Origin: a virus
Lineage: Duplodnaviria; Heunggongvirae; Uroviricota; Caudoviricetes
Length of the DNA stretch: 35,588 nucleotides
IMG/VR virus record: IMGVR_UViG_2585427725_000018
Strand: one strand, 5' to 3'
Shown here one piece after another: positions 1 to 20,324 of the stretch (positions are counted from its first letter, which is position 1; every line of letters begins with the position of its first letter). The notes under the pieces were generated by a model. The model had not been told where the DNA came from and did no database searches. It saw only the letters and a list, made by a program, of their open reading frames with translations. The position numbers were made by a program, and so were the translations under genes.

Positions 1-280
1 GGTCATAACTCCTCATGTATGTGGGGTGCTCGATGGCTCTCGTTATCTGGTTAAGTGTTTTGCAGCGCGGACATTTTATTTCAATGTAGTGAAATGAGGC
101 GCGGGCAAGTAGTTTGTTGCAATTTTTGCATCGTACATTTTGCGTCATTTGCGGCACCTCTTGTGTGGTTACTGCTGCCGATATGATAACAAATCGATCG
201 CTTTTATCGATCGGATTTATTGCATCGATCTGTTATGCCTATTACTTATGAATGGTGTTACCCTCATTTATGAGGGCAAC

Positions 281-315
281 AAAAAGAAAACCCGCAGTTT
301 TTACGCTGCGGGTTT
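281..315 (-). terminator. Rho-independent terminator downstream of the TM2-domain gene
   Basis: Inverted repeat aaacccgcag / ctgcgggttt (about 10 bp stem, 8 nt loop), followed on the minus strand by a U-rich tract (tcttttt gttg). The gene it follows stops at 341. Confidence 0.6.
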
Positions 316-340
316 GTCATTCTGATTCGCCCACTAGGCA

Positions 341-637
341 TTAGCCATATTTGCGGGCAAAGTCTTCATCAGAGGTGCATAGATAGATAAAAAACTCAAT
401 AAATGCCACGATTGCCGGAATGAATGTCCAGCAAAAAATAAGGTAAAGGAATCCTTGCCCCACTTTACCTAAATAAAATTTGTGTGCACCAAGACCACCT
501 AAAAAGAAAGCCAGTAGTGCTGCTGTCATTCTGCTTTTTGAACTTGCTGTTCTTTGAGGTGCTCCACAATTGGGGCAGGATGTGGCATCTTTATGTATTT
601 CCTTGCCGCATCCGCGACAAAATACCATTTCACTCAT
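341..637 (-). CDS. Zinc-ribbon / TM2-domain membrane protein
   Basis: 98 aa ORF. N-terminal CxxC...CxxC zinc ribbon (CRGCG...CPNCG), then a TM2-like segment (GGLGAHKFYLG...) with hydrophobic helices. ATG preceded by AAGGAA at about 7 nt. Confidence 0.7.
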   Translation of the reverse strand: MSEMVFCRGCGKEIHKDATSCPNCGAPQRTASSKSRMTAALLAFFLGGLGAHKFYLGKVGQGFLYLIFCWTFIPAIVAFIEFFIYLCTSDEDFARKYG

Positions 638-670
638 AAAGAGTTCCTTTCAAATTTAAATAAGCGTTAA

Positions 671-693
671 GCCCACCACTCTTACTGGTGGGC
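671..693 (-). terminator. Hairpin downstream of the hok-like gene (possible terminator)
   Basis: gcccacca (7 nt loop) tggtgggc, 8 bp stem, followed on the minus strand by a moderately U-rich stretch. Weak call. Confidence 0.35.
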
Positions 694-772
694 CTCAATT
701 TAAATTTGGGTGCCACTTCGACCATACCCTGGCAACCGATTGACGGGGGATTGCTCCCCCGTCGCGGTTTCC

Positions 773-913
773 TTACTGCTTACACTGTAAGAACGCCGCA
801 AACTCCGCTCCCCAAAAGCTCATCCGTATTTCACACAGCGAACCGTGCAGCATCCAGATGATGAGGATTACCGTCACGCAGAACGTGATGGCCGTAAGCG
901 ATTTTTGCGACAT
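773..913 (-). CDS. hok: Hok/Gef-family type I toxin (small membrane peptide)
   Basis: 46 aa ORF not on the track (below its size cut-off): MSQKSLTAITFCVTVILIIWMLHGSLCEIRMSFWGAEFAAFLQCKQ. Single TM helix followed by the SLCEIR and E-x-AAF(L/M) motifs characteristic of Hok/Gef/HokA-E peptides. AAGGAG lies 8 nt upstream of the ATG; a 9 bp GC hairpin (742-763) sits in the 3' UTR. Confidence 0.65.
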   Translation of the reverse strand: MSQKSLTAITFCVTVILIIWMLHGSLCEIRMSFWGAEFAAFLQCKQ

Positions 914-1365: not shown

Positions 1366-1611
1366 AGATACCCCCTCCATTTAACGTGACGCTTCCGTTA
1401 TTTTTAGTTGCACTAGTACAGATTCTAGCTGACTGTCTCTTTGATTGAAAGTTCTTCTGTACCCATAACTCGATCTCGTAAGAATCTCAACTTGTATAAA
1501 GTTATTAATATAAATTTATACTAATAATTAAAATAGTTGCGCTTGCTGTCATGACATGCAGTTAGCTATTATAAAAGATGAATATATAACCATAGGCAAG
1601 ATATAAACTGG

Positions 1612-1677
1612 ATGGGATAAAAATACCTAGGTGAGTAACTAATTATATTTAATTATTTTGAATATTAGTCACTCACC
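1612..1677 (-). terminator. Rho-independent terminator closing the AT-rich accessory cassette
   Basis: ggtgagtaactaat / attagtcactcacc inverted repeat (14 bp, one mismatch, AT-rich loop), followed on the minus strand by tattttttat. Lies 16 bp downstream of the stop at 1693. Confidence 0.6.
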
Positions 1678-1692
1678 GTGGTATTAGAAAAA

Positions 1693-2097
1693 CTAAATAC
1701 TCTCTTGGTTTTTTTTGATTGTTTTTAGAGTTTCTAGATACTGCCTTTTCCTGTCAAGGCTTTGTTTTACTAATTCTTTATCGGTTGGTGATAAATTTTC
1801 TATATCATCCAATGTAAACTCAGCTTTTATTTTTTCTTGTGCTATCTCCTCAAGTTTTTTATATTTGTTACTGACAATTTTGTTGTAACACCAATTAACT
1901 ATAAGAGGAAGGAATAATGATATAAATACAGTTAACTTACTATAGTTTTCTATTCCTATTATATCTTTCACCCGCTCAGAAAAAGGCAGGGTGAGTATAA
2001 TGCTAGCAATAATTGAAGCCAGAAAACCGTATGCTAATCTACGGACATCGTGATTAGCCTTCAGGATTGTGGGAATTGAGTCATTAGTTTTTGACAT
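1693..2097 (-). CDS. Hypothetical two-TM membrane protein with C-terminal charged coiled-coil region (accessory cassette gene 2)
   Basis: 134 aa. Two hydrophobic helices (LAYGFLASIIASIILTLPF; LTVFISLFLPLIVNWCY), then a Lys/Glu-rich tail. ATG preceded by GGAGGAGAAGG. Start overlaps the upstream gene by 14 nt. Very AT-rich compared with the phage backbone. Confidence 0.6.
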   Translation of the reverse strand: MSKTNDSIPTILKANHDVRRLAYGFLASIIASIILTLPFSERVKDIIGIENYSKLTVFISLFLPLIVNWCYNKIVSNKYKKLEEIAQEKIKAEFTLDDIENLSPTDKELVKQSLDRKRQYLETLKTIKKNQESI

Positions 2098-2644
2098 GCC
2101 CCTTCTCCTCCGCGGTTTGTTTATTTATCATCTTTATAGAGCTTTCATCTATAAACATACTGGCTTCCAGGAGAGCAATTATCATGCTTCCCAAAATAGA
2201 GGACAGTTTGATTGATGCTTTCTTTGAATCATCATTTTTCCCATCGTATTCTGAATAACCAAAATAATCTTTGAATAGAAGGCTTTCAATGTCATCAAAG
2301 AAGAAAAAGGATGTAGTTATAACAATTATTGGCTTCTTGTCTATTATCTGAAACGTTACATTTGTTTTATTGAATTTAATTGATGTGTCATTAACTATCT
2401 TAACTAACTCCATCATGTTATTCGCTACTGGGCGATTAACTATACTCATTGTGAGCGATGGAGAAAATCCTGAATCATCAAAATTCAAATAATATTGAGT
2501 TACAGATGATTCATCTTTGTATTCTTTGTCTATGAAACTTTGTATTATTTTTTTATTCAAAGTCGAGCCATCACTTTCATTATATAATTCAATATTATCA
2601 TCATATCTAAGGGCTACACTATCGCGAATCAAATCAATCAACAT
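2084..2644 (-). CDS. Hypothetical acidic soluble protein (accessory cassette gene 1)
   Basis: 186 aa, Asn/Ile/Lys/Asp-rich, no motif I can recognise. ATG at 2644 (track start 2650 is a TTG two codons upstream) with GAGGT about 9 nt upstream. AT-rich. Confidence 0.55.
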   Translation of the reverse strand: MLIDLIRDSVALRYDDNIELYNESDGSTLNKKIIQSFIDKEYKDESSVTQYYLNFDDSGFSPSLTMSIVNRPVANNMMELVKIVNDTSIKFNKTNVTFQIIDKKPIIVITTSFFFFDDIESLLFKDYFGYSEYDGKNDDSKKASIKLSSILGSMIIALLEASMFIDESSIKMINKQTAEEKGHVKN

Positions 2645-2677
2645 TATCAAAAGACCTCAATTGTTATTCCATGCATA

Positions 2678-2707
2678 ATTATACTAAAAGTATCTTAAAA
2701 ACAGCAA
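2678..2707 (-). promoter_or_regulatory. Sigma70-type promoter driving the accessory cassette
   Basis: On the minus strand: -35 TTGCTG (2707-2702), 18 nt spacer, -10 TATAAT (2683-2678). Predicted start about 27 nt upstream of the ATG at 2644. Confidence 0.55.
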
Positions 2708-2867
2708 AATTTTACATTGGTGATACCTATATGTTGATTGTCCCTCTGAACAGGGGGAACTGCTTTTACAATAATGAATGTAGGGCATTCTGGCGCAGAG
2801 CGGTCAGTCTGATAGGGTTGTGTCATAATCGTGTCAGTACATGCCTGAACTAATACATCTAAGTTGC

Positions 2868-3977
2868 TCACTCTGTTTCTGCTATCCATTCCGGGATTTT
2901 TGCTTCAAGCTCAAGCTGCGTGGTAAAGCCGCTGTTATCAATGGTGTGCTCGGCTTTTGCAATAATCCAGTCCTGATTGTCGATGTCACTTTTGAAGCCT
3001 GTCACCGTGCCATGCATTTCAGGGTAGAGTTCTGCACGTCCACGCGCCAGCGTGATGGAGAATGATGCGGCTCCGCGTTGTAGCTGCTGCCACTTTGCCG
3101 CCGCTGCGCGTCTTGCTGCCTGCTCGTTCTGATAAGTCTTGCGTAACACAAAAACATTGCCTTCCGCACCTTCCATATAATCACCTTCACGGCTGCTGCT
3201 TTTCTCCTTTTTGGGCTTGGGCGGTTTGCGGCGTTTCACGCTGACTTTTTTCTTTTTCCCGTAATTAAGATCAAGCCAGTAAGCGCGTACCCCCGTATAC
3301 GCTTCGCGGTCAGCAATGCGGAACTGATGGCGATCGCCACTGCTGCGCGTGATGGCGAACGAGGGCAACGGCTGGCCCTGTGCGTTCACGCCACCGCCTG
3401 GCATGATGAATAACAGATTACCGCTTTTTACCGTAGTGATTGCGCCCAGCATTTCCGCCATGCGCGTAAGGAAGGACATGTCGCTTTCTTCAGTCTGGTC
3501 GGCGTGGTCGATTTCGATATCCATCAGCATTTCGCTGATTTGCGGTTTCAGGCCGTACCGATGAGCGATGGCGGATACCACACGCTCAACGGTCACATCA
3601 TGCCATGACACCTCACGTTTAACGTTAAATTCATCCCGAAAATCTGCGCTTCTGGCTGAAACAGTCAGCCTGTCGGGCGGTCCTTCATGAGCAATTTCAT
3701 CAACAATGTAAGTGCCTTTTTCTGTCAGCGGTTCTCCCTTCCAGCCAATGAGAACCGTCAGGCGCGCGCCCCGTGGCGGTAGCTGCAACTGACCATCCGC
3801 ATCATCCAGCGTGATGGTGAGCTGGTCCGCCTCAAATCCCCGGTTGTCGGTCAGTGACAGGCTCATCAGGCGCTCTGCCACGCCTGACAGCGTTTTACCC
3901 TCCGCGAGAATATCAAAATCCGGCATTTTCACGGGGTCTGTGCCCTGACTGAGCAATTGCATGGTGGTGTCGGTCAT
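2868..3977 (-). CDS. D: Tail protein D (late control gene D family)
   Basis: Long ORF with gpD-like sequence and a Lys-rich linker (KKKKVSVKRRKPPKPKKEK). Start set at the internal ATG (MTDTT...) preceded by GGGAGGGAG; the track ORF extends 44 codons further upstream. Confidence 0.85.
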   Translation of the reverse strand: MTDTTMQLLSQGTDPVKMPDFDILAEGKTLSGVAERLMSLSLTDNRGFEADQLTITLDDADGQLQLPPRGARLTVLIGWKGEPLTEKGTYIVDEIAHEGPPDRLTVSARSADFRDEFNVKREVSWHDVTVERVVSAIAHRYGLKPQISEMLMDIEIDHADQTEESDMSFLTRMAEMLGAITTVKSGNLLFIMPGGGVNAQGQPLPSFAITRSSGDRHQFRIADREAYTGVRAYWLDLNYGKKKKVSVKRRKPPKPKKEKSSSREGDYMEGAEGNVFVLRKTYQNEQAARRAAAAKWQQLQRGAASFSITLARGRAELYPEMHGTVTGFKSDIDNQDWIIAKAEHTIDNSGFTTQLELEAKIPEWIAETE

Positions 3978-4134: not shown

Positions 4135-5319
4135 ATGAGTGAAACTCGTTTTCATGGTGCCCGTGTTACGGAAAGTACCGACCTGGTAACAGCGATTAAT
4201 GATGTTGATTCCAGTGTTATCGGTATCGTGGCAACGGCGGATGATGCGGACGCGGAGCTGTTCCCGCTGAACAAGCCCACACTGCTGACCCGCGTCAATG
4301 ACGTGCTGGGAAAATGCGGAACAACGGGGACGCTTTATCGTGCGCTTAAGGCCATCGCAGACCAGGTGAGCACAAAGGTGATCGTCGTTCGCGTGGCTGA
4401 ACACAAAGAAGAAGACGGAAAAACGCAGGATCAACTGGTTATCGGTGGTTCTGAATCTGACGGCAGCTATACGGGGATGTATGCGCTGCTTGTTGCAGAG
4501 CAGGATGAAAGCATCGGATACCGTCCGCGTATTCTGGCCGCGCCGGAGCTGGACACGGAGGCGGTAACAAAATCCCTGTGCGTGATTGCAGGTAAACTGC
4601 GCGCGTTTGTGTATGCCTCATGTCACGGCTGTAACACGATGGCTGAGGCGATTACCTACCGCCAGAAATTCAACGAACGTGAGGTGATGCTCTTATGGCC
4701 AGACTTCATCGCCTACAACCCGAAAAGTGGCAAAAACGAAACGTTCCCCGCGCCTGCCTATGCGTGCGGCCTTCGTGCGTACATTGACCATGAGCAGGGA
4801 TGGCACAAATCACTGTCCAACGTTCCGGTTAAAAATGTGCTGGGGATGTCGAGGCATGTGTTCTGGTCGTTGCAGGCCGAAGACAGCGATGCCAACAGCC
4901 TCAACAACAAAGAAATCACGACCATTATTCGTCGCAACGGGTTCCGCTTCTGGGGCAACCGCACACCGGAAACGAACGCCTACATCTTTGAGGTGTATAC
5001 CCGAACCGCACAGGTGCTGGCTGATTCAATTGCGGAAGCGCAGTTTGAAACCATCGACAGTCCACTGACGCCTGCGAACGTGAAGGATGTTATCAGTGCC
5101 ATCAGGGCAAAACTGGATTCGCTGGTTACTGCCGGGAAACTGATTGGTGCGGAGTGCTGGTATGACGTGGTGGATAACGGCACCACGAATTTACGTCAGG
5201 GACGTGTGCGTATTCGCTACAAATATACGCCCGTTCCGCCACTGGAAGACATGGAGCTTTACCAGACGTTTACTGATGAATTCTTTGGTCCCGCATTTGC
5301 GGTGCTGGGAGGTGCCTGA
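4135..5319 (+). CDS. FI: Tail sheath protein FI
   Basis: 394 aa, strong similarity to P2 FI along the whole length (e.g. LRAFVYAS, LLWPDF, DHEQGWHKSLSNV, IRRNGFRFWGNRT, YTPVPPLE). AAGGGG RBS. Confidence 0.95.
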   Translation: MSETRFHGARVTESTDLVTAINDVDSSVIGIVATADDADAELFPLNKPTLLTRVNDVLGKCGTTGTLYRALKAIADQVSTKVIVVRVAEHKEEDGKTQDQLVIGGSESDGSYTGMYALLVAEQDESIGYRPRILAAPELDTEAVTKSLCVIAGKLRAFVYASCHGCNTMAEAITYRQKFNEREVMLLWPDFIAYNPKSGKNETFPAPAYACGLRAYIDHEQGWHKSLSNVPVKNVLGMSRHVFWSLQAEDSDANSLNNKEITTIIRRNGFRFWGNRTPETNAYIFEVYTRTAQVLADSIAEAQFETIDSPLTPANVKDVISAIRAKLDSLVTAGKLIGAECWYDVVDNGTTNLRQGRVRIRYKYTPVPPLEDMELYQTFTDEFFGPAFAVLGGA

Positions 5320-5831
5320 TGGCTGTACCAAAACATCTTCGCTTTTTTACGTTGTTTGTGGATGGTGAAAACGAAGTGGGTAAAGTGACATCCGTCACGC
5401 CGCCCAAACTGACGCGCAAAACCGACAGCTATCGTGGTGGTGGCATGATGGGGGCGGTAAGTATTGATCTCGGTCTGGACGACTCCGCGCTTGATGCGAG
5501 TTTTGTTATGGGGGGAGCTGTTCGTGCGCTGTTCCTTAAATATGGCGGCACGATTGACGGCACGCTGCTGCGTTTTGCGGGTGAATACTACACCGATGCA
5601 GAAAGCGATCTGTATGAAATCGAGATGCGCGGACGTGTGACGGAAATTGATATGGGGGAAGCCAAACAGGGCGAAGCCACATCACACACTTACGCTGTCA
5701 AAAACACCTACTACAAGCTGAGCGTTAACGATCGCCCGCTGTGGGAAATCGACCTGTTGAACCACATCTACCGGAAGGACGGCAAGGACATTGTGCCTGA
5801 CCGTATCCGTTCCGCGCTTGGGCTTGGCTGA
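5319..5831 (+). CDS. FII: Tail tube protein FII
   Basis: 170 aa; ATGA start/stop overlap with FI; GGGAGGTG RBS; conserved position after the sheath gene. Confidence 0.9.
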   Translation: MAVPKHLRFFTLFVDGENEVGKVTSVTPPKLTRKTDSYRGGGMMGAVSIDLGLDDSALDASFVMGGAVRALFLKYGGTIDGTLLRFAGEYYTDAESDLYEIEMRGRVTEIDMGEAKQGEATSHTYAVKNTYYKLSVNDRPLWEIDLLNHIYRKDGKDIVPDRIRSALGLG

Positions 5832-5886
5832 TAAGTAATATGCAGGCGGCGCAGTGCGTCGCCTCTGACTGAAAAGGAGACAACTG

Positions 5887-6261
5887 ATGAAAGACATCGA
5901 TACTGAAACCCGGAATAACACCGTGGCGGATGATGTGACGGCAGGTGAGGATATGGCTGTCGAACGTGGCGTAAAACTGACCCGACCAATTGAGCGTGGT
6001 GGCGAAAAAATCACGTATGTGGAGATCACCGGGGCTATTGAACAGGCTGGATCCCTGCGTGGTCTGTCGCTGTCTGATGTGCTGAATCTGAAAGCGGATA
6101 CCATGTTCACGCTGTTGCCTCGCGTGACCTCGCCACGACTGGATGAAGTGATGATTAAAAAAATGTCGTCACGCGATTTTATTCAGTTGTGCGCTGTGGC
6201 TGTAAATTTTATGAGCGAGCCAGACTCTGGCGCGAAGAGCGTGCAGGAGACGGCAGCGTAA
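5887..6261 (+). CDS. E: Tail assembly chaperone E
   Basis: AAGGAG 7 nt upstream of the ATG; conserved position between tube and tape-measure genes; contains the slippery A-run used for the E' fusion. Confidence 0.8.
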   Translation: MKDIDTETRNNTVADDVTAGEDMAVERGVKLTRPIERGGEKITYVEITGAIEQAGSLRGLSLSDVLNLKADTMFTLLPRVTSPRLDEVMIKKMSSRDFIQLCAVAVNFMSEPDSGAKSVQETAA

Positions 6262-6425
6262 TCACCCTGGTGTGCTTTGAGCACATCGAAGATCTGGTGG
6301 CAGATATCGCCGCCATTTTTAACTGGTCGCCCGCCGAAATCTTCATGATGACGCCCGGCGAAGTGGTTAGCTGGCGTGAGCGGGCGGCACTTCGCAGCGG
6401 GAATGCAGACAATGAAGACTCTTGA
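5887..6425 (+). CDS. Tail assembly chaperone E+E' (programmed -1 frameshift product)
   Basis: The -1 frame is open from 6159 to the stop at 6423-6425 and encodes ...FNWSPAEIFMMTPGEVVSWRERAALRSGNADNEDS, similar to the P2 E' C-terminus. The shift is predicted at the A7 run. Confidence 0.7.
6157..6163 (+). other. Slippery heptanucleotide (AAAAAAA) for the E/E' -1 frameshift
   Basis: A7 run decoded as AAA AAA in the E frame. The -1 frame has a TAA immediately upstream (6156-6158) and is open downstream, so the shift must occur here. Confidence 0.6.
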
Positions 6426-9219
6426 TATCCGGGTCGCTTTCAGCGCCGTTGACAGGCTGACCCGGCCTGCCGAAAACGCCCGCCGCCTGATGGGGCAGTT
6501 TGGTGACTCCATCCAGCGAACGCAGGGGGCGATCAAAAATCTCGAGCGTCAGGCGCGTTCGTTTGAGCGCGCCCGTGACGCTGTCAGTAAAGCGGATGCG
6601 GGCATCGTGAAAGCACGACGCCAGCTTAACGCCCTTAATCAGTTACAACGCACGGGTACAGTGCTCAGCGAAAAACAACAAAAGCTGATGCAGCAGTTAA
6701 GCACCCGGCTTGAACGCCTGAATGAATCGCGCACACGGGAAATTCAGAAAATGCGGGAACTTGGCGGAGAGCTGAAACGCCACGGCATTTCCCTGACAGG
6801 CAGCGATAACACCATCCAGCAGGCCATCAGACGCACCGAACAGTACAATAACCAGCTTGAACGCGAACGGCAGGCGCTTGCGCGTGTAACGCGGGCGCGT
6901 GAGCGGTATTCGCGCGCGCAGGAAACAGCGGGAAAACTGAAAACAGGTGGTGCGCTGGCAATTGGTGCGGCAGCGGCTGGCGGCTATGCTGCCGGGCGTT
7001 TTTTGCAGCCTGCGATCGGGTTCGGCAAAGAGATGTCCCGAGTTCAGGCACTGACGCGAATCGACAAAAACAGCCCGCAGTTTAAGGCGCTGCGTGAGCA
7101 GGCGTTAAAACTTGGCTCTGAAACGCAGTTCACCGCAGGCGATGCCGCCAGTGGGCAGGCATTTCTTGCAATGGCTGGCTTCACACCACAGGCCATTCAG
7201 GCTGCGCTTCCCGGCGTGCTGAGCATGGCAACGGCTGGCGGTATGGATCTCGGCGAGACGGCGGATATTGGCTCAAATATCCTGACGCAGTTCGGCCTTT
7301 CTGCTGACCAGATGGACCAGGTCGGTGACACACTCACCGCAGCGTTTACCCGTACCAACACTGACCTTCGCGCACTGGGCGAAACCATGAAATATGCCGG
7401 TCCGGTGGCGGGTAAGCTGGGGATATCGCTGGAGCAGGCCGCAGCGATGGCGGGCGTGCTGGCGAATATGGGCATCAGAGGGAGTGATGCCGGGACGGCA
7501 ATGCGTGCCAGCCTGGCTCGTCTGGCATCACCGCCAAAGGCGGCGGCAGAAGCTCTGAAAGAGCTGGGCGTGTCCGTCTCGGATGCCGGGGGCAAAATGC
7601 GCCCGATGGAAGATCTGCTGGCTGACCTCTATAAAGCTACCCGCAAATACGGGGAAGTTGACCGGGTATCCTTCTTTAAGGACATCGCCGGGGAAGAGGC
7701 TTTCACATCGTTTATGGCTCTCGTTGATGCGGCGGGTGACGGTTCCTTACCCAAACTGAGAAAAGAACTTGAGGGCGCACGCGGTGAGGCTGAACGCACG
7801 GCAAAGGTTATGGCCAACAACCTTGATGGCGATCTGAAATCACTCGGCAGTGCATGGGAAGGGTTGCGCATCCGCATTGCAGATCTGATTGACGGTCCGC
7901 TGCGTTCTGTCACGCAGTGGCTCACGCGGGTGGTCTCAAAAGTGACGGCACTGGCGCAGGCCCATCCGGCACTGACGCGCCAGTTACTGATAGCGGGAGG
8001 CGCACTGCTGGCGACAACAGCAACGGTTGGTTCGTTGTCTCTGGTTATTGGGGTGCTTCACGGGAAGCTGGCTACGTTACGTCTCGGTTTTTCTCTCCTG
8101 ACAGGATCAATGAATGTCGTCAGGGTGCTGCCAGCACTATGGGGAATGGTAACAGGTTCCATCTCGTTGCTGGGTGGCGCTATCGGGGCGCTGTTCAGTC
8201 CGGTTGGATTGATTGCTGCTGCGTTTGTGGCTGCGGCGGTTCTCATCTGGAAATACTGGGAACCCATCAAGGCGTTTTATGCAGGGGTGTTCAGTGGGAT
8301 TATGGAACGGCTGGCTCCGTTGCGCGAAACCTTTGAACGGTTCGGTCCTGTTTTTGATGTCGTGCGCGATGGGATCATTCAGGTCTTTAACTGGTTTAAA
8401 TCGCTGCTGTCACCGATGGAGTCCGGCAAGGAAACGCTGGATAAATGTACCAGTGCTGGCGAGGTATTCGGCAGGGTACTCGGTGGAGCGATAGAGCTTG
8501 TCCTGACGCCAACAAAAGCATTGATGGATTCACTGGCGTGGATACTTGAAAAGCTCGGAGTGCTTCCGGATGAAGCGGAAAGGGCGAGAAAGAAAATCGA
8601 AGACGCACAGCGTGCGGCCATTCTTCAGGACAAGGTTGCCTTGCTTCAGGGGGACCTGGCGAAAATCAATCCGCCGAAGCCTGTGGAAAATGGCAATGGC
8701 ACCGGAGGTGATAAACCCAAAGACAATAAACCGCTCACAGACAGCAATACCGGGACGCTACGCAGACTCAGCAAAATTGCTGATAACACAGGTAAGCTGG
8801 TTGATGAGACGAAAAAACGCATTGGCCCCGGCGATATTGTCTTTAAGAACCTGCCCCGCGCACTTGCTGTTCGTGGGGAGTGGCAGGAGCGGAAGATTGC
8901 GCAGGTCAGTAAGCCTGCCCCCGCAATTAATATCACACCCGTGGTCCCGGCTCCGCTGCCTCCGGCGCTGGTCCCTGTTGTTGCGGCCAGCTCCCGCCCG
9001 GTGGCGGAGGCCATACGATCTCCAGTGGCATCAGTTCCTGTAACTTTCCGTAACCGGGAGCCTGTTGCCTCCGGATTTGGTGGTGAAATTCATGTTCATC
9101 TGCATAACGTTGTTACGCAGAATCCCCGCGAACTGGCGAAACTGGTCGGTGAAATGGTCAGGGCAGAAATGGAACGGCGCGCCCGTGCCGGGCGTGGCAG
9201 TTTTTACGATAAAGATTGA
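6412..9219 (+). CDS. T: Tail tape measure protein T
   Basis: About 935 aa, coiled-coil N-terminus, Gly/Ala-rich hydrophobic middle and a conserved IRKYWEPI-like segment. Start chosen at MKTLDIRV by alignment to the P2 T N-terminus; in-frame ATG at 6403 is an alternative. Confidence 0.9.
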   Translation: MKTLDIRVAFSAVDRLTRPAENARRLMGQFGDSIQRTQGAIKNLERQARSFERARDAVSKADAGIVKARRQLNALNQLQRTGTVLSEKQQKLMQQLSTRLERLNESRTREIQKMRELGGELKRHGISLTGSDNTIQQAIRRTEQYNNQLERERQALARVTRARERYSRAQETAGKLKTGGALAIGAAAAGGYAAGRFLQPAIGFGKEMSRVQALTRIDKNSPQFKALREQALKLGSETQFTAGDAASGQAFLAMAGFTPQAIQAALPGVLSMATAGGMDLGETADIGSNILTQFGLSADQMDQVGDTLTAAFTRTNTDLRALGETMKYAGPVAGKLGISLEQAAAMAGVLANMGIRGSDAGTAMRASLARLASPPKAAAEALKELGVSVSDAGGKMRPMEDLLADLYKATRKYGEVDRVSFFKDIAGEEAFTSFMALVDAAGDGSLPKLRKELEGARGEAERTAKVMANNLDGDLKSLGSAWEGLRIRIADLIDGPLRSVTQWLTRVVSKVTALAQAHPALTRQLLIAGGALLATTATVGSLSLVIGVLHGKLATLRLGFSLLTGSMNVVRVLPALWGMVTGSISLLGGAIGALFSPVGLIAAAFVAAAVLIWKYWEPIKAFYAGVFSGIMERLAPLRETFERFGPVFDVVRDGIIQVFNWFKSLLSPMESGKETLDKCTSAGEVFGRVLGGAIELVLTPTKALMDSLAWILEKLGVLPDEAERARKKIEDAQRAAILQDKVALLQGDLAKINPPKPVENGNGTGGDKPKDNKPLTDSNTGTLRRLSKIADNTGKLVDETKKRIGPGDIVFKNLPRALAVRGEWQERKIAQVSKPAPAINITPVVPAPLPPALVPVVAASSRPVAEAIRSPVASVPVTFRNREPVASGFGGEIHVHLHNVVTQNPRELAKLVGEMVRAEMERRARAGRGSFYDKD

Positions 9220-9231
9220 GGAGTCATGGCC

Positions 9232-9720
9232 ATGATGATGATCTACGGCATGTTTGTTTTTGAGCTGCGCACGCTGCCGCATCAGCAGTTACAGCAAAAC
9301 AAAAGCTGGCGGCATGTGAAAAATGAACGCGTTAACCGTTCAGCAAGCTGGCAGTATATCGGTGCAGGTGATGATCGCATCGTTCTTTCTGGTGTGCTTT
9401 ATCCTGAAATTACAGGTGGCGAAGTGTCGCTGTCGCTGCTGACCACGCAGGCGTATACAGGACGACCCTGGCCTTTGATTGATGGCGTCGGGCAGATTTA
9501 CGGCATGTATGTCCTGACCGGAACGAATACGACCCGTTCCGAGTTTGATCGCTACGGTAAGGCGAAAAAGATAGAATTTTCACTGACTCTTGAACGCTGT
9601 GATGAGGATTTGCGGGAGCGCCTGCAATCCTCATCGTTCAGCGATATGCTGTCCGGCTTCAAAGATAAAGTGACATCATCCCTTAACAGCACGGCCAGTT
9701 CAGTTAAAGGGCTGTTCTGA
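9232..9720 (+). CDS. U: Tail protein U
   Basis: MMMIYGMFVFELRTLPHQQL... aligns with the gpU N-terminus (MMVLGLFVFMLRTVPYQEL). GAGGAG 8 nt upstream of the ATG at 9232. Confidence 0.85.
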   Translation: MMMIYGMFVFELRTLPHQQLQQNKSWRHVKNERVNRSASWQYIGAGDDRIVLSGVLYPEITGGEVSLSLLTTQAYTGRPWPLIDGVGQIYGMYVLTGTNTTRSEFDRYGKAKKIEFSLTLERCDEDLRERLQSSSFSDMLSGFKDKVTSSLNSTASSVKGLF

Positions 9721-9890: not shown

Positions 9891-10454
9891 ATGCTGAATA
9901 ATAGAGATATGAATATTAATGAACTTAAAGATTGTATTCACTATGAAGTAATCGGTAGCGAGCGTCCTTTCTCCTGGCGAAAGGCAATTGTTCGCGCAAT
10001 AAAACATAGAAGAGTTCGTTATTTATTTTGGTGGCGCATAGCCAAATACCTTTTTGATAAAGGCGGATACTGTCGGAAGATTGCGGGGAAAATAGAACGT
10101 TTCATTCTTGATAAATATAATGTAACAGTCCCTTTAACTGTAAATATAGGGAAAGGCTTTGATATTTCTTATCTCAACAGTGTTGTTATCGGTCACAAAG
10201 TAACAATCGGTGAAAATTGTTCAATAAAACCAAGGGTAACTATTGGGCTGCGTGGTGATTTTAATGATATGGATATTGTTATAGGACATAATGTGACCAT
10301 TGGTTGTAATGCCACCATTCTTGGTGGCAAAGTGCGTATAGGAAACAATGTCACAATAGGTGCTCATGCATTGGTATTGCATGATATTCCTGATGATTCA
10401 ACATTCATCACTAAATTTCAGTCTGAAGTTATCTGCTCGTCCTCCCGCACATAA
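9891..10454 (+). CDS. Hexapeptide-repeat (left-handed beta-helix) acetyltransferase, CysE/WcaB-like
   Basis: Tandem hexapeptide repeats ([51 protein letters not shown]) after an alpha-helical N-terminal region ([14 protein letters not shown]). AT-rich. Start uncertain (9891 or 9909), neither with a strong SD. 3' end overlaps the convergent gene G by 37 bp. Confidence 0.7.
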
Positions 10455-11035
10455 CCCTGATTCATCAGCTCTGGCCATACGATATCCGGAGCTGTACTGG
10501 TGTCAATTCTACTCACTAATACTCTGTATTTTCTCCAGGAATCCAGTTGTGAATTTTCCTCGTTTGTTGCTATTTCAAGATTAACTGCATCCTGCAGAAT
10601 TGCGATGTTATCTGTTGCTTCCTGGATCAACCTTGCCTTTTTCTCTTCCGCTTCCCGTATCCGAAACAGTTTTTCTGCTTCCTCATCCTTCACCCAGGAT
10701 ACGCCGTCCCACTTCTGATACTCCCCTGCTGGCGACAACCAGGTGACATTCTCTGGTAGCGGTCCGGGCTCAGAAATAAACAACGCGTCCCCCGATGCCA
10801 CGTCATAGACCGTTTTACCACGATGGTCTTCAACAAGATGCCACGATGCATCATCACTGTTGAAAACAGCCACGAAGCCAGCCGGAATATCTGGCGGTGC
10901 AATATCGGTACTGTTTGCTGGCAGGCCTGTATGAGGCGGAATGTATGCGTCACCTTCACCAATAAATTCATTAGTTCCGGCCAGCAGATTATAAATTGTT
11001 ATGGTCCGTGGTTGTTCACTCATTCTGAAATCCAT
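10418..11035 (-). CDS. G: Tail fibre assembly protein G
   Basis: Conserved Tfa C-terminus ([23 protein letters not shown]). ATG at 11035 with GAGG about 5 nt upstream; the track start 11041 is a GTG. Confidence 0.8.
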
Positions 11036-11043
11036 GTTCACCT

Positions 11044-11946
11044 CTACTTAATATCAGAGACAGAATATTGTTTGTTGAGCGTATGGGTGTGAGCACCAAT
11101 AACGATGCTACTTCCGTGGCTATGTGCGCCAGAGATGACATTACCTACGGGATTTTCTGGATTAATCCGGTGTATATGCGAACCAGGGCGAAACCGGTTA
11201 TTAGCCTGATGTTGTATCAGTACATCATCAGCCTGATGTTCAGGGTTAATACAGACCTGCCCGGAACGTGAGCAATATGTCCGATAATCGCCGCATCCAA
11301 TATATTTAGTATCCGCATAACGGCAAACAGAATTACCCGGACGGTATGCATATGTGCCAAATACTGCCGACTGGCGGGATTGTGCGTATTCCCAGTTAAT
11401 TGATTCTGTTTTTTTATTAAAGTTATCCCATGCCTGCTTCATCTGCCGGGCAACACTTTCAAACGGCACCTGACCACATCCGGCTCCCATTGCAGGGAAT
11501 ACCACCGTTTTTATTTTCCTGTCTGTCGTTGCGTGTTTATTGTGCTGAAAGATGGCAAGCAGAGCGGCCCAGGTTGCGTTATATACAGCGTCTGTTCCGT
11601 CAATTGTCAGCGGAACACGCATTGTTGGCGCATGTACCAGCCAGGGATGATGATTATGCCCCGTTTCAATAACAAATGCAGAACCTACAGGCTGCTCGCC
11701 TAGATATTCACGAAGAATATGATTCTGAACGCGGGACTGTAACTGAGTACCGAAGAATGCGGTAATGGCGGCATCAACACCGCCATCCATCAGGCCGAAA
11801 CTATTTGCCGCACTTACCATGCAGTTAAATTCCCTGATTGTTTCAAATGGCTTTCCGACAATATTCACATTATCTGCATTTGCGAATACCCGCTTAAATG
11901 CTTCAGCCATTTCTGTTACTGGTGCAGAAAGAATGAGCGTAATCAT
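11044..11946 (-). CDS. Macro-domain protein fused to a tail-fibre-tip-like His-box C-terminus
   Basis: N-terminal roughly 190 aa carry macro-domain signatures ([20 protein letters not shown]...; [15 protein letters not shown]). C-terminus contains GxHxH repeats ([19 protein letters not shown]) like those at the C-terminus of H. Start ATG overlaps the H stop (ATGA); GAGG RBS. Confidence 0.75.
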
Positions 11947-13769
11947 GCAAGCCTCACAATATAGTTAAATGCGATGTTTTTGACAGTGTTTTCCGCGTTA
12001 CCAGCAGCGTTAACGGTGATGGTGTGTCCATGTGAACCAATCGCAACAGAGTGCGTATGAGCGCCAATACCAACAGTGTGTGCATGTGCCCCAGCACTTG
12101 TAGCGGTACCTGATACTGAGTGGGTATGTGCGCCAGAAGAAGGCACAGTTCCATTCCCCACCACCGTGCCACTTGATGAACCATCCAGCCAGTCGAAATT
12201 CATACCGCCACTGTTTGGTCTCCTTAATGGAACGGTATGAGTATGTGCGCCAGCACTATTTGCAGTACCAGATACATTGTGGGTATGCGCACCTGTGTTA
12301 TTCGTTGATTTAGTACCGTAATCAAACGACGATGTGGTTTTCGTACCCAAATCCGTATTGGATGCGCTGGCGCTGTGGGTGTGCGATTTAATGCCATCCT
12401 GTTCCTGAGACAATACGGCCCGACCAGTGGCGGGGTTTCCTTTGATTGTCCAGCCACGCATATCAGGGAGCACACCAGAGGGATAAGCTACTGCAAGTTT
12501 CGGGTATGCTGATTTGTCAAAAGCCTGCCCCACCATGATAGCGTAACCGTCAGGCGGCGTATCTGACGGCCACGGCAGAGGTATTCCCGGTGGTAATGCT
12601 TCAATTCCCTTTGTGCCATCAAAAGCAACACCACTGATGGGGTGTGCTGTTTCCAGTTTACTTGCAGATACTGCGTTACCTGTTGCGGATAATGCGCCAA
12701 TATCCTGCACTGTGGGCTTGTTTTTATCCGTGTAAGTGCGGTACCAGATGGTTTTTTTTCCCTTGTCCAGTATCACCCCGGTAAATTGTGCCCGGTGTTC
12801 TTTTGTGGTCGGATCTGAATCTTCCAGCCCTGTGGTGATCCTGACTATTCCGCCGATGATTTCGCCAAACACTTCAATCAGGCAGCCGCCCAGGCCGATA
12901 TCACCGTACCCCGTGTCAGTAAGCACGCAGTGCTGTGACAGCGAAATATTAGCCCTGAATATCCAGCTCCCTGTTCTGAAGGCGCCACGCTCATTCAGCC
13001 ACTCCACGAATTGTTCCGTTGTCCAGCGTTGTCCTGCTTTACCTATGTACCCGTTTTTTGCATAAACGCGTGGTGTGCCCACGTTGATCAGGAACAGCTC
13101 CTTGTTGGGGATGTCCTCACCATTGCGGTTTTTCGCAAGCCGACCATCAGCGTTGTCCATGGCGATCTTTATGGCCTTTGGCGTGGCTGCCCGGGTCTCT
13201 GATGTACTGGTGGTGTCGCTGCTTAACTGAGTAAAACCTTTTGTGGTCAGCGAGGCATCCGGGTGACGTCGTGACTGTTCATGCTCTTTCAGTTTGTCAT
13301 CCACGTAATCCACTGTGGCCATCACCATGGTGTTATCCACGGTAAGCGCCACGGTGGCAGTGCTGGATACGGTCAGAATGGTGCGAAATGTTTGTGCACG
13401 TCCGGACCCTTCGGCAACGGTTGGTTTGTAACTTTCGGCAGTATTGCCCACCGCGATTAAATCGCCGTGCTCATCAAATACACCAATTTCCCGGATCCAG
13501 AATCCGCCCGTTTCAGGAGGAATAACCAGCTCCGCAATAATGCGGTTCTGATGTGTTGCGTCCAGGATGACGCGATTAACAGTGTGTCGCCACACCTCAT
13601 GCACCAGACGGATCTGCTTACTGTCTGGTGTGGGCAACGTGCCGCCACCGTCGCCCACGGCCATATGAGTCAGGCGGACAGGCTTACCATCTGGCGCGGC
13701 TGCCTGAGCTAATTTTTTTGCACCCGTATCGGTGATAACGGTTTTAAATTTTCGTGTTGTGGTACTCAT
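11943..13769 (-). CDS. H: Tail fibre protein H
   Basis: 608 aa. N-terminal about 200 aa closely match P2 H ([49 protein letters not shown]). C-terminal His-box repeats GAHTHSV...GAHAHTV...GAHTHSV. Confidence 0.9.
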
Positions 13770-13771
13770 GC

Positions 13772-14302
13772 TTAATCGCCTGGATAAATGGTAATAACTT
13801 CACCGTCATAAGTTGCCGCCGCTGTGAAAATATCCCCCGGAATTTCCTGAATGATATTCAGCCCTGTCATGTGGCGGCTGACCGGACGGGCATCAGCAAT
13901 CAACCGCTCCATTTCCAGATACATTTCCTCCGTCACGCCACTGTCCAGTGTGCCGACTTCAACGGTAAATGTTCCCGGTTCTCCGCCGAACTCCCACCAC
14001 TCAGACACGCGAATGAGGTATCCCAGCGGTTCAATGGCCCTGCGCAGTGCGCTGATGGTCCCTTTGTGTCGGTGTATCAGCCATGCATCACGAATAACCT
14101 GTCGCTTTGTCTCTTCCGGCCAGTTGCGATCCCTGCGGTCAACGGAAAATGCCCAGGCGAGATAAGGCAGCAGATGCACCGGGCAGGTGTCCGGCGACCA
14201 CAGCGTGTTGAGGTCTACCGGGATGTCTGTAATGCGCGCTCCGACAGCTTCGGCACAACGCATGAAATTGCTGGCTGATGGCGGTAACAGTGAATTACTC
14301 AT
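13772..14302 (-). CDS. I: Baseplate assembly protein I
   Basis: Conserved [23 protein letters not shown] segment. Start at the internal ATG (MSNSLL...) with AAGGTGG RBS; overlaps the J stop by 8 nt. Confidence 0.85.
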
Positions 14303-15191
14303 TACGCCCACCTTCGCTGATGGTGAATGACTCACAGCGCGCCGCCTGTATGTCGCTGATGGCCATATTCTGTGTAGGTTCGATTATCTCCACGCGTTGC
14401 ACACCGTGCACATGCAGTGCGGCAGCAATGGCGGACAACGCCACGTCCTGACCGATAAGCCCCTGCTCAGCCAGCCACTTCCTGAACGACGATTCAGCCG
14501 CAGCCAGAATAGGTTCGGATTCCGGACCGGGGTAAAAGTACAGTTTTGCATTCAGCCGCCATGTCACGATGCTGGCGCTCTGTACGGTCAGGCGGTCGGC
14601 CACCGGGCGGGTATCCTCTGCATTCAGAACGGCGCGAACGGTATTAAGCAACGCCTCCGTTGCTGTGCCGTCGCCTTTAGTGGACAGAATGGAAACCGTC
14701 ACATTTGCCGGAGACGGGCTGATGGCCCGCGCATCACGCACCAGACCGCTGGCGCTGCGGGCAAAATACTCGTATGCACCTGACGGGCCAGCAACACTCA
14801 GGCCGTCGTACGCCCGCTGCGCCCGCAGTCTCAGCGAGGTGTCGCTCTCCATCACCGCGTCGGTGGTATCCGTTGCCGGAGTGATAACCAGGCGCTTTGT
14901 GTTCATATTGCCCGCGAGGTTGTCCAGGTCTGTCCCGGCGCTGTGGCTTAACATGCAGGCGCGTGCACCCTCATTGACCCGCTGGCGTAACAGCATTTCA
15001 CGAAACGCTGTTGTCTGGGCGATAACGTTCAGGGGTTCCGATTCCAGCTCCAGCGCGGCGGAGACGGCTTCACGCTGTTCGGCGGGATAAGCCGCAATCA
15101 TCATGGCCTTTGTGTCAGCCAGAATTGCTTCAAAATCAGGCTCCGCGATGATGGCGGGTTCCGGTAACTGTGAAAGGTCAACGGCGGGCAT
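14295..15191 (-). CDS. J: Baseplate assembly protein J
   Basis: 298 aa at the conserved position between W and I; gpJ-like. Confidence 0.9.
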   Translation of the reverse strand: MPAVDLSQLPEPAIIAEPDFEAILADTKAMMIAAYPAEQREAVSAALELESEPLNVIAQTTAFREMLLRQRVNEGARACMLSHSAGTDLDNLAGNMNTKRLVITPATDTTDAVMESDTSLRLRAQRAYDGLSVAGPSGAYEYFARSASGLVRDARAISPSPANVTVSILSTKGDGTATEALLNTVRAVLNAEDTRPVADRLTVQSASIVTWRLNAKLYFYPGPESEPILAAAESSFRKWLAEQGLIGQDVALSAIAAALHVHGVQRVEIIEPTQNMAISDIQAARCESFTISEGGRNE

Positions 15192-15194
15192 GAT

Positions 15195-15545
15195 TTACTC
15201 CCTCAGCGTGATGGTTAATTCAACATTCTGCATGGTCTGCATGACAATGCCCGACAGCGTCACCCCGGCGCGGCCTCCCGCTTTCCAGACAACGTCGATG
15301 GCATCCAGGGCAATGCGGGGTTCCCATCGTGTCAGCGCAATCACGGCAGCACTCATGCATTGCAGACGCGTGGTGTTATTCATGGGTTCGTCAATCAAAT
15401 CAGGCACAAGGCTGCCATATTCCCGTCGCATAACCCGGCTTGCCAGCGGGGTGGCCAGGATGTCCCTGACTGACTGTTTCAGGTGCTCCATATCGTTCAG
15501 GTTTCCCGTCCCGTCCGGATTCATTCCTGTGTAGCGGGTTGTCAC
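15195..15545 (-). CDS. W: Baseplate protein W
   Basis: MTTRYTGMN... matches the gpW N-terminus (MTARYLGMN). GTG start overlapping the V stop (GTGA). Confidence 0.85.
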   Translation of the reverse strand: MTTRYTGMNPDGTGNLNDMEHLKQSVRDILATPLASRVMRREYGSLVPDLIDEPMNNTTRLQCMSAAVIALTRWEPRIALDAIDVVWKAGGRAGVTLSGIVMQTMQNVELTITLRE

Positions 15546-16123
15546 TGCGGGCCTCCTGTCGAATCGCTGCCGCCTTTCACGCCACCGTGTTTATGCGTAT
15601 GCACGGTAATGCCGTTTGAGGTGAAGTTGCCGCCGCTGTGCGTGATATTGCCGCTCATCTTTCCTCCTTTTGTGACGTCAAGCGTCGCCGTTCTCAGAAG
15701 GTTTGTGCATTCCACGACGGGCGTATCCAGTTTCACGCTGACGGATGCCTGCAAAGTGGCCGTTTTCATGCCGCTGGCGCTCAGTGCGCCTGCGTCTGCG
15801 TCGTAGCGGAACACCGCGCCATCCGGCGCGCTGACCACGATTTCTTTCAGGCTTTTGCCGGGGGCCGGACTGGCATCACTCCACAGGCTGCCAATTATCA
15901 TGGCGGTTTCCGGGTTGCCGCCAATGCAGGCAATTACCACCTGTTCGCCCACTGATGGCGGCAGCCACACATTGAAGGCCCCCGCGCGCGTGGTGTTCCA
16001 GCGCAACCAGCCTGTTTCCAGTTCGCCGCTGCGAACGCGCACGCGCCAGGACTTCTCATCAACTTCAGAGATGATCCCGGTGCGGATGATATTGCTCAGC
16101 AGTCGCATGAGTTCTGCGCTCAC
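15542..16123 (-). CDS. V: Baseplate spike / assembly protein V
   Basis: gpV-like sequence (IIRTGII, PSVGEQVV, TGGKMSGNITHSGG, HTHKHGG). GTG start at 16123 overlapping the S stop; in-frame ATG at 16108 is an alternative. Confidence 0.85.
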   Translation of the reverse strand: MSAELMRLLSNIIRTGIISEVDEKSWRVRVRSGELETGWLRWNTTRAGAFNVWLPPSVGEQVVIACIGGNPETAMIIGSLWSDASPAPGKSLKEIVVSAPDGAVFRYDADAGALSASGMKTATLQASVSVKLDTPVVECTNLLRTATLDVTKGGKMSGNITHSGGNFTSNGITVHTHKHGGVKGGSDSTGGPQ

Positions 16124-16755
16124 CGTACAGCCTCCGCAATCCGGCCCAGCACCGTGTTATAAATCAGGCGCTCATCTGCCTGGCTGATACCCAGCAGCTC
16201 ACGTACCGGGTAATCGGTGAAAATGCCCGGCGCAACCTGATCGCGCTCACCGAACTGATGAACGCGTGCAATACGTGCGGCCACGCCGCTGTAACCCACC
16301 GTCACACCGGAAGCATCTGCACGGGCTTTCAGGTAGCGGGCGGTGCGCAGTTTTACGAACATGGGGACGCGCTTTGTGCTGTCCTGGTTGATGCGCCTAG
16401 TGCGTATTTCCAGAAAACGGTTGATGTCATCCCGGTAAAACGTGCGGATATTGTTTTTATCCTCATCCCACCCGGTAATGGTTCGCCCGTATTTCCCCGT
16501 GTCGTGATGCCAGTTTTTCAGCGTGCGTGCTTCGTTATTCCAGATAAAGCGAATGCGTTCCTGTATCCTGGTTACGCGGCGTCTGCGTGGTGTCCACGCG
16601 GTCCCGTCCGGCGCTTTCTGTGACCGGATACGCGCCTGCTGGGCGCGGCGTAAATCCTGTGCCAGCTTTCTGGCGATGTTATTGATGGCCTGCTGATTCA
16701 GGCTGTCGCGGATGGCCTCAAGGGTTTCATCCACGCGGGTGAATGCCTTATCCAT
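16120..16755 (-). CDS. S: Tail completion protein S
   Basis: Conserved position between R and V. Start taken at the ATG (MDKAF); the track start 16764 is a GTG. Confidence 0.75.
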   Translation of the reverse strand: MDKAFTRVDETLEAIRDSLNQQAINNIARKLAQDLRRAQQARIRSQKAPDGTAWTPRRRRVTRIQERIRFIWNNEARTLKNWHHDTGKYGRTITGWDEDKNNIRTFYRDDINRFLEIRTRRINQDSTKRVPMFVKLRTARYLKARADASGVTVGYSGVAARIARVHQFGERDQVAPGIFTDYPVRELLGISQADERLIYNTVLGRIAEAVR

Positions 16756-17215
16756 CGCTTTCACCCCACGTCACATCCTGGAATACATGCGACCAGTCGC
16801 CTTCGGAAGATGGCAGGCGGGGTTTTGGCTCCGGCAGGTGTTCTGCCTGCGGGGTGCCCTGACTGATGCGCGTGATGCGAACGCGTTCCCGCAGGGGGAG
16901 CGTAAACAGGAGATCGGCGCTGTCATCGTCATTGATAACGGCGGAGAATTTGATGTCCTGATTACGCTCAGGGTTGAGCAACAACTGTGGCTGATTTTCG
17001 GATAACCACGCCAGCAGCGGCAGCGTGAGGTCGTCCAGCTCCCCGGCGTAATCCATGACAAACATCACCATCTGATAGCGGTAAACAAACGATGGGGTTT
17101 CTCCTGTCGTTTCAATGTTGCCGCTCTCCACGAAAATGGTGAATTTTTCCGGGTTGGCCTGACACCATCGGCATGAACGGGTCATGGCTTCACGCAGGGA
17201 ATCAGTTTTCAGCAT
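16748..17215 (-). CDS. R: Tail completion protein R
   Basis: 155 aa, conserved position after the lysis cassette; gpR-like. Confidence 0.8.
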   Translation of the reverse strand: MLKTDSLREAMTRSCRWCQANPEKFTIFVESGNIETTGETPSFVYRYQMVMFVMDYAGELDDLTLPLLAWLSENQPQLLLNPERNQDIKFSAVINDDDSADLLFTLPLRERVRITRISQGTPQAEHLPEPKPRLPSSEGDWSHVFQDVTWGESDG

Positions 17216-17492
17216 GGTTGTTGTCCTCGTTGTTCAGTCTTTGCAGCCTGCGCTGTTCCAGTAATTCAATGGCCCGTTTATCCGCGTTACAGGTTTCCAG
17301 TGCATCCAGAAGGCGGTCGCCCCATATACCGAGATTTCCCCATGTGGGAGTGTCAGGGAAGGGGGGAGGCGTTACCGGTATGGTCAGTGTCTGCGGTATA
17401 AGCCGGACTGACGGCGCTGGCCGTGGCGCGTTCTGCGTGCCTGCGCAACCTGTCAGAAAAACGAGCGTCAGGCAAAGCGTGGGCGCATTCAT
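17202..17492 (-). CDS. lysC: Outer-membrane spanin (Rz1/LysC-like lipoprotein)
   Basis: MNAPTLCLTLVFLTGCAG: signal peptide with an LTGC lipobox, then a Pro-rich region. Starts inside the i-spanin gene in another frame and extends beyond it. Confidence 0.7.
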   Translation of the reverse strand: MNAPTLCLTLVFLTGCAGTQNAPRPAPSVRLIPQTLTIPVTPPPFPDTPTWGNLGIWGDRLLDALETCNADKRAIELLEQRRLQRLNNEDNNHAEN

Positions 17493-18302: not shown

Positions 18303-18356
18303 TTCGTCACCTCTGTGAATGATTTTTATGGTGATTACCGGCTTTAAGCCTGCGAT

Positions 18357-18680: not shown

Positions 18681-18682
18681 TG

Positions 18683-20279: not shown

Positions 20280-20324
20280 TTGTTCTCTCCGTTACTGGCG
20301 GGCATGATGCCCGCCGTGAGTTGA

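Follow-up and report, generated by a model that had tools for sequence, protein, structure and literature searches.

The window analysed here is a stretch of 35,588 nucleotides (IMG/VR record IMGVR_UViG_2585427725_000018) that comes from a P2-like prophage of E. coli and is presented in the orientation opposite to that of the P2 map, as its reverse complement. On its minus strand the tail gene D (about 3962-2868, with the stop codon at 2868-2870) is followed by ogr, the gene for the late activator (1365-1105), and by a hok/gef gene (913-773). The D-ogr gap of reference P2 measures 81 bp and holds the ogr promoter only, with no gene. In the window, the D stop and the ogr start are separated by an insert of 1502 bp on the minus strand (1366-2867) with 32% GC. 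The G+C content is 0.28-0.33 over positions 1350-2700 and 0.50-0.57 in D and the tail genes, and the two genes of the insert, termed A and B, together have 0.32 against 0.53 in the remaining window. A first-pass annotation of this DNA, made from the sequence alone, had described an AT-rich cassette between D and ogr at a junction where P2 carries no genes, and on both points it was right. Read along the minus strand, the order is a flank, a hairpin, promoter-like hexamers, gene A, gene B, a terminator-like hairpin, a spacer and ogr.

Gene A (2084-2644, minus strand) starts with ATG and encodes a protein of 186 aa with a pI of 4.72 that has no family match. Its start is supported by homologues that begin at the same methionine, and it is preceded by a fair Shine-Dalgarno sequence, GAGG at 2658-2655, 10 nt upstream of the ATG. 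Gene B (1693-2097, minus strand) overlaps gene A by 14 nt and encodes a basic protein of 134 aa (pI 9.1) with weak, scattered family hits only; the sequence GGAGGAG at 2111-2105 lies 7 nt upstream of its ATG. The overlapping pair of an acidic 186-aa protein and a 134-aa protein with two TM helices had been recognized in the first-pass annotation, which also credited both genes with strong Shine-Dalgarno sites; that of gene A is fair and not strong. At a stop frequency of 0.08 per codon, frames as long as A and B would be free of stops with probabilities of 2e-7 and 1.5e-5, respectively, and the longest stop-free run reaches 190 codons, as compared to a maximum of 137 in 1000 shuffles. Gene A, with a dN/dS of 0.16-0.21, is under purifying selection. 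Since the stop-free runs exceed chance, gene A is under such selection and homologues that are 28-54% identical keep the same length and architecture, A and B are real, conserved protein-coding genes.

The D-proximal (left) flank of the insert (2771-2867, minus strand) begins with GCAACTTAGA directly past the D stop. It is 98% conserved among the cassette alleles, is recognisably conserved though diverged among loci that carry 13 unrelated cargos, and is missing from empty sites. Between this flank and the promoter region lies a G+C-rich hairpin (2741-2758, minus strand; TCCCCCTG TTCA GAGGGA) with no T-run downstream of it on the gene strand. A candidate sigma-70 promoter (2678-2707, minus strand) consists of a -35 hexamer TTGCTG at 2707-2702, an 18-nt spacer and a -10 hexamer TATAAT at 2683-2678, which are the elements previously named as a sigma70-like promoter of the cassette. 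The hexamers are present, and the -10 element is perfect and invariant among four alleles, but the -35 element agrees with the consensus at 3 of 6 positions and varies among the same alleles. A consensus promoter scan did not call the site, and the 12 promoter-like sites of the region, against 7.2 +/- 2.9 in shuffles, represent no significant enrichment. The candidate promoter is not distinguishable from AT-rich background.

Downstream of gene B, a terminator-like hairpin (1617-1685, minus strand) is formed by an inverted repeat, I1, with arms at 1685-1664 and 1643-1622, a loop of 20 nt and then TATTTTTA. Its stem of 14 bp is extendable to 20 bp, and its predicted fold of -25 kcal/mol (z = -5.6) was not equalled in stability by any of 200 shuffles. 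With this stability and the T-run, the intrinsic terminator proposed for the cassette is borne out, with the reservation that the 20-nt loop is longer than that of canonical terminators and is atypical. Such a terminator would keep transcription of the cassette out of ogr. The remaining part of the insert (1366-1616, minus strand) is an AT-rich non-coding spacer with the ogr-proximal flank, about 250 bp before ogr. It contains a promoter-like site at 1552-1524, from which ogr could be transcribed, and a diverged right copy, GCAACTAAAAATAACGG, of the junction repeat, a short direct repeat (CAACTTAGA) found at the D-ogr cargo site alongside the shared flanks. Terminal inverted repeats of the transposon type were also considered as boundaries of the cargo and were dropped, as their alignment scores did not exceed those of shuffles in most loci; what stands at the boundaries is the short direct repeat and the conserved flanks.

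Protein A has no conserved transmembrane segment. Its conserved C-terminal helix (residues 145-166) is hydrophobic in the E. coli alleles and contains six charged residues in distant homologues, and for this reason residues 147-165 (Kyte-Doolittle score 1.9) were rejected as a transmembrane anchor. In a shallow alignment of five sequences no invariant catalytic-type motif is visible, so protein A is unlikely to be an enzyme. Single-sequence AlphaFold prediction was uninformative (pLDDT 36). A further structure model (pLDDT 64, with one of five models above 50) predicts, at low confidence, an alpha/beta N-terminal domain of about residues 1-125. Searching PDB and BFVD with Foldseek returned generic alpha/beta matches with low TM-scores only; among them, histidine-kinase ATP-binding domains, biotin ligase and tail completion proteins were rejected as uninformative. 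YbjN and the class I type III secretion chaperones reached TM-scores of at most 0.49 on the pLDDT 64 model. The fold of protein A is possibly a chaperone-like or YbjN-like alpha/beta fold, which we treat as a lead and not as a result. Compared with both of these groups, protein A would have an additional C-terminal helical region of about 60 residues, and no sequence-level match to either of them was found in Pfam (E-values up to 10) or PDB.

Protein B includes two uncharged hydrophobic segments (residues 21-40 and 54-72), which are kept in all seven family members, and a charged, helical C-terminal tail of 62 residues. Positive charges are located before the first hydrophobic segment and just after the second. 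Because the two segments are conserved and uncharged and positive charges flank them on both cytoplasmic sides, the layout suggests that of a membrane effector, and we infer that protein B forms an N-in/C-in membrane hairpin with its tail in the cytoplasm. Gene B is less constrained than gene A, with a dN/dS of 0.35-0.38; one allele pair gave a dN/dS of 1.1, a value derived from 21 non-synonymous and 5 synonymous changes, only 26 substitutions in all. Hits of the B family to known proteins were weak and inconsistent. SieB (phrog_6399) was matched by two of the seven members at E = 0.005, which is below a reasonable threshold for membership. In PADLOC, two of the seven members matched PDC-M03A (0.001), and RTasSLATT (0.004) and KwaA (0.008) were each matched by one. 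A single member had a very weak hit to a holin phrog (E = 0.11). The family profile of B retrieved only coiled-coil or transmembrane noise from PDB sequences.

Comparison of protein A, protein B and all family members with Pfam, PADLOC, PHROGs and NCBIfam yielded no usable match, and neither A nor B is homologous to known defence, exclusion or toxin proteins in these four collections. Protein A had no hit in PADLOC-DB 2.0, its family profile found nothing among PDB sequences, and no domain of a type II toxin-antitoxin system was detected in A or B in Pfam or NCBIfam. The earlier remark that neither protein belongs to a family that can be named therefore holds across Pfam, PADLOC, PHROGs, NCBIfam and PDB. 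Judged by sequence comparison, A and B solidly represent an orphan pair that belongs to no described family.

The family was defined by a word-indexed search of 5.8 billion protein clusters, by an exhaustive phmmer search with protein A against 1.84 billion cluster representatives and by a profile search with the alignment of B. These three protein searches, which cover billions of proteins, revealed four lineages in total. The first consists of the E. coli alleles, which are 86-100% identical, always have the gene order D-A-B-ogr-hok and are found in prophages at at least three chromosomal sites, adjoining ihfA, greA or ytfP. In the second lineage (L023) a pair with 48-54% identity follows the tape-measure gene of an enterobacterial siphovirus-like element. 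In the third (L015) a pair with 28-33% identity occupies the gpS-gpV slot of another P2-like phage. The fourth (L003) is a short contig of a GC-rich P2-like phage, in which a B homologue (52% identical) lies tail-to-tail with gpD and follows the C-terminal end of an A-like open reading frame. Phage tail genes (gpD, gpV or the tape-measure gene) are located beside the pair in all four contexts.

The cassette is very rare. It is present in two of 5426 complete E. coli genomes; among 50,697 phage records megablast detected no match to it, neither of two scans that covered one genome per GTDB species with both family alignments turned up a relative, and scans of IMG/VR returned the E. coli alleles only. 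In the literature, no paper was found that mentions the RefSeq accessions of protein A or protein B.

Where the pair occurs, its organization is preserved. Gene B directly follows gene A in three phage contexts that are independent of one another, namely the D-ogr junction in E. coli, L015 and L023, and in all four lineages the two genes either overlap or lie no more than about 10 nt apart. In every member of the family the two proteins carry opposite charges, A with a pI of 4.5-4.9 and B with one of 9.0-9.6. All four lineages have an AT-rich pair, with a G+C content of 0.27-0.36 as compared to 0.39-0.58 in its surroundings. A and B are a co-inherited pair that travels together. Of the 19 cassette loci that were checked, 17 have intact frames for both genes; in one of the broken alleles (L105) both genes are frameshifted, and in the other (L014) B alone is truncated.

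The rarity of the cassette and the existence of frameshifted alleles raise the question of whether it is decaying, silent DNA that was acquired horizontally and serves no current function, and E. coli often silences DNA that is rich in A+T. The prevalence of intact frames, the dN/dS of about 0.2 in gene A and the maintenance of the pair, with its architecture preserved, across unrelated phages at 28-54% identity all argue against this explanation, and we consider it highly improbable.

The same loci bear on a second alternative, an addiction module resembling a toxin-antitoxin system, in which B would be a membrane toxin and A its neutraliser, and which would stabilise the prophage or the cargo. 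None of the 19 loci combines a broken A with an intact B, which speaks for such a module, although the sample is small, broken alleles are few and errors of assembly in this homopolymer-rich DNA could account for the frameshifts. An acidic upstream protein paired with a basic downstream membrane protein, encoded by overlapping genes, also suits the idea, and the hok/gef gene at 773-913 demonstrates that the element carries modules of this kind. Protein A, however, contains no DNA-binding domain or known antitoxin domain and exceeds B in size with its 186 aa, an unusual relation for an antitoxin, and protein B matches no toxin family. An addiction module thus appears improbable, with the qualification that one and the same module can have both a toxin-antitoxin function and an abortive-infection function.

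In order to characterize the insertion site, we surveyed 80 loci from IMG/VR in which Ogr shares at least 97% identity with the Ogr of the window; the D-ogr distance was measurable in 77 of them. In 43 of the 77 loci the gap is 40-42 bp. The remaining 34 carry cargo of 1.0-2.8 kb with a G+C content of 0.32-0.43, which represents 13 unrelated modules. The A-B cassette is one of these modules and is present in a single locus of the 77, so that neither among these relatives nor in E. coli at large is it a universal occupant of the junction. Other modules encode a PifA-like KAP NTPase (PADLOC, 2.6e-64), a GmrSD-like nuclease (a protein with GmrSD_N and HNH domains), PIN_4 and PIN_12 proteins, a weak match to HEPN_RiboL-PSP, and a phosphoribosyltransferase-like protein (a weak match to PADLOC PsyrT) with a 185-aa partner. 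A SEC-C protein, a DUF2971 protein, an alpha/beta hydrolase and several proteins without a match were also found. The D-ogr junction is a cargo hotspot, and its other occupants include defence-type genes. Since several of the cargos, such as the alpha/beta hydrolase and the unmatched proteins, lack a defence signature, location alone is weak evidence for defence.

The moron character and foreign composition that the first-pass annotation had attributed to the cassette agree with these data, as the site is empty in P2 and in the 43 relatives with a short gap. There is solid support for regarding the insert as a horizontally acquired two-gene moron of foreign composition in a variable D-ogr cargo slot. 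Two classical hotspots have been described in P2, A-Q (old/tin) and Z/fun (PMC9122126, PMC9519451), and uncharacterised cargo is common in P2 hotspots (PMC9519451, PMC13586616); no explicit description of D-ogr as a hotspot was found in the literature. The A-Q hotspot of the window's own prophage encodes ParM/StbB and Ead/Ea22-like genes, in which a search of Pfam only found no recognisable defence domain. As these A-Q genes are without a Pfam defence domain, the A-B cassette is possibly the main candidate defence cargo of this prophage.

The survey further bears on the possibility that the pair is an accessory unrelated to defence, such as a lysogenic-conversion factor that acts on the envelope physiology of the host, a holin/antiholin-like regulator of lysis timing or a chaperone for a tail or ejection protein. 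The tail genes that neighbour the pair in every context, the chaperone-like model of A, the class-II-holin-like topology of B with the faint holin hit of one member, and D-ogr cargos that are not defence-like, e.g. the alpha/beta hydrolase, are all compatible with such a role. Yet, of the 77 phages whose D and Ogr are near-identical, 76 lack the pair, which is why we consider it dispensable for tail assembly and lysis; the pair is dispensable for the phage. Moreover, foreign composition and a layout that runs from a candidate promoter to a terminator are typical of morons and unlike those of morphogenetic genes, and the fold model of A is weak. An accessory of this type is, in our estimate, rather improbable.

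One of the characterized systems closest to the pair is RexA/RexB of phage lambda. In both cases two adjacent prophage genes encode a cytoplasmic partner and a small inner-membrane protein (predicted, in the case of B), both are located outside the lytic operons and both are presumed to be expressed in the lysogen; by analogy, the logic proposed here, in which a sensor gates a membrane effector, would also be shared. RexB has four transmembrane helices and RexA about 280 aa, so that by this description the pair differs from them, with two segments and a long helical tail in B and 186 aa in A. The layout of adjacent genes for a cytoplasmic partner and a membrane protein, as in RexAB, is kept in the four contexts.

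HK97 gp15, SieB of lambda and P22, and T4 Imm, which act on superinfecting phages, are small inner-membrane proteins of AT-rich morons that are often found by tail clusters, and in these respects they resemble protein B. Exclusion morons such as HK97 gp15 sit beside tail-tip or ejection genes, as does the A-B pair in all four contexts. The pair could hence act in superinfection exclusion at entry, where B, with A as an accessory, would block ejection or translocation of the DNA and the cell would survive, in the manner of HK97 gp15, T4 Imm and P22 SieA. The predicted nature of B as a small two-segment inner-membrane protein would suit such a block, and a dN/dS of up to 1.1 in gene B would fit an interface in co-evolution with phage proteins, although it rests on just those few substitutions. 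On the other hand, known blockers are usually single genes for small membrane proteins or lipoproteins, as are HK97 gp15, SieB and T4 Imm, whereas B is always accompanied by a conserved cytoplasmic partner, and a passive block needs no conserved partner that is translationally coupled to it. Homology to the Sie, Imm or Cor families was also absent in PADLOC and PHROGs. We therefore regard exclusion at entry as unlikely.

A third group for comparison is the cargo of the P2-like hotspots (old/tin at A-Q, Z/fun, PD-T4, PD-lambda and DprA-PRTase), which shares with the cassette the family of carrier phages and the AT-rich, present-or-absent pattern. The cassette differs from it in its slot, D-ogr, which is neither of the classical hotspots A-Q and Z/fun (PMC9122126, PMC9519451), and its proteins match none of the systems described from P2 hotspots.

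The association with a cargo site and the layout of a cytoplasmic partner with a membrane protein lead us to favour a role in defence. Based on context and architecture, we propose an anti-phage role for this moron, with A as a sensor or regulator in the cytoplasm and B as an effector in the membrane, and we give this proposal a little under an even chance of being correct. The extreme rarity of the family speaks against a broad function of this kind, as it would be unusual for an effective broad defence. A and B would share one translationally coupled transcript, which would start at a promoter of their own in the lysogen and might also arise, late in infection, from transcription that continues past D; transcription of the ogr region has been documented in lysogens of a P2-like prophage (PMC7067206). 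Protein B would span the inner membrane with a helical N-in/C-in hairpin, its basic helical tail reaching into the cytoplasm, where the acidic and presumably non-enzymatic A may bind this tail and hold or gate B. An incoming phage would supply a trigger upon which A releases or activates B, and B would then compromise the membrane, so that the infection is aborted or is otherwise stopped at the membrane. The lysogen population would be protected by this means, in analogy to RexA/RexB in logic and not in ancestry.

A fuller version of the anti-phage proposal is more tentative and, in all its parts together, doubtful. Here the pair would constitute a new two-component anti-phage system, in which a chaperone-like or YbjN-like A gates the two-segment membrane effector B, and would be exchangeable cargo of a third, little-studied hotspot at D-ogr, where the conserved flanks and the short junction repeat suggest a dedicated route for the exchange of cassettes.

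Should the pair prove active, its 1.1-kb cassette would add to prophage-borne immunity a new protein family that has no relatives among the described systems. Because the family is rare and uncharacterised cargo is abundant in P2 hotspots, such a result would extend a known pattern and not change it. An active pair would also make the D-ogr junction, where most of the 13 modules are uncharacterised, one more site at which to look for defence genes in a family of enterobacterial prophages that is very common.

In P2, the genes T, U, D and ogr all lie on one strand, whereas in the prophage studied here T and U are opposite to D and ogr. The tail block FI-FII-E-T-U (4135–9720, plus strand) is inverted relative to D (2868–3962, minus strand), ogr and the other late genes (10418–22270, minus strand), so that D and FI have divergent directions of transcription. 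This arrangement was found in all related loci, and in most of them a resolvase/invertase adjoins gpU. Inversions linked to an invertase at the gpU-side hotspot were noted in a preprint (10.1101/2024.10.15.618418). The gpU/tail-fibre junction is a hotspot of the Z/fun type, occupied by the resolvase/invertase in relatives and in the window by a hexapeptide-repeat transferase (9891–10454, plus strand; Pfam Hexapep, 4.5e-12), which may act as an acetyltransferase in lysogenic conversion.

The classical A-Q (old/tin) hotspot of the window (25727–27608, minus strand) encodes an actin-like plasmid partition pair, ParM/StbA (26649–27608, 1.6e-81) and StbB (26333–26779, 7.8e-23), together with an Ead/Ea22-like protein (25727–26269), all on the minus strand. 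No defence system was recognised in this hotspot by the Pfam search. A partition system is unusual for a P2-like prophage, which integrates. The early region includes side-by-side matches to the C4 antisense RNA (81 bits) and the Hfq-binding RNA isrK (67 bits), both above the Rfam gathering score (31239–31436, minus strand).

Past ogr, the window (1–913) includes further cargo, namely a hok/gef toxin gene (773–913) and a gene for a membrane protein with a zinc ribbon and a TM2 domain (341–637; Pfam TM2, 5.5e-19), both on the minus strand. At this left edge, a Com-family regulator and a DNA methyltransferase are annotated in the matching E. coli records. In relatives, the chromosome (ihfA, greA) directly follows hok.

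Alleles of the cassette between D and ogr were compared for gene A, encoding the 186-aa acidic protein, and gene B (1693–2097), encoding the predicted membrane protein. Between the window and the E. coli allele at locus L004, dN/dS is 0.19 for A and 1.1 for B, where 21 of the differences are non-synonymous and 5 are synonymous; B could be under diversifying selection, although so few differences do not settle the matter. Frameshifts break both A and B in the allele of locus L105 (3001–4270), and truncate B alone, to 92 aa, in that of locus L014 (761–2032). A broken A with an intact B was found in no cassette allele checked. The frameshifts may represent genuine decay, or else assembly errors in homopolymers.

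Comparison of the window's D-ogr flanks (1366–1440 and 2771–2867) with the related junctions L054–L104 demonstrated that occupied junctions carrying 13 unrelated cargos have in common a left flank of ~95 bp, diverged yet recognisable, and likewise a right flank of ~45 bp. A terminal inverted repeat around the cargo was apparent, but was not significant when tested. Occupied junctions also include a short direct repeat, GCAACTTAGA immediately after the D stop codon and ACAACTTAGAATAGC before ogr, of which empty sites have one copy. As the flanks visibly differ from each other far more than the adjoining Ogr proteins do (97–100% identical), they appear to move together with the cargo.
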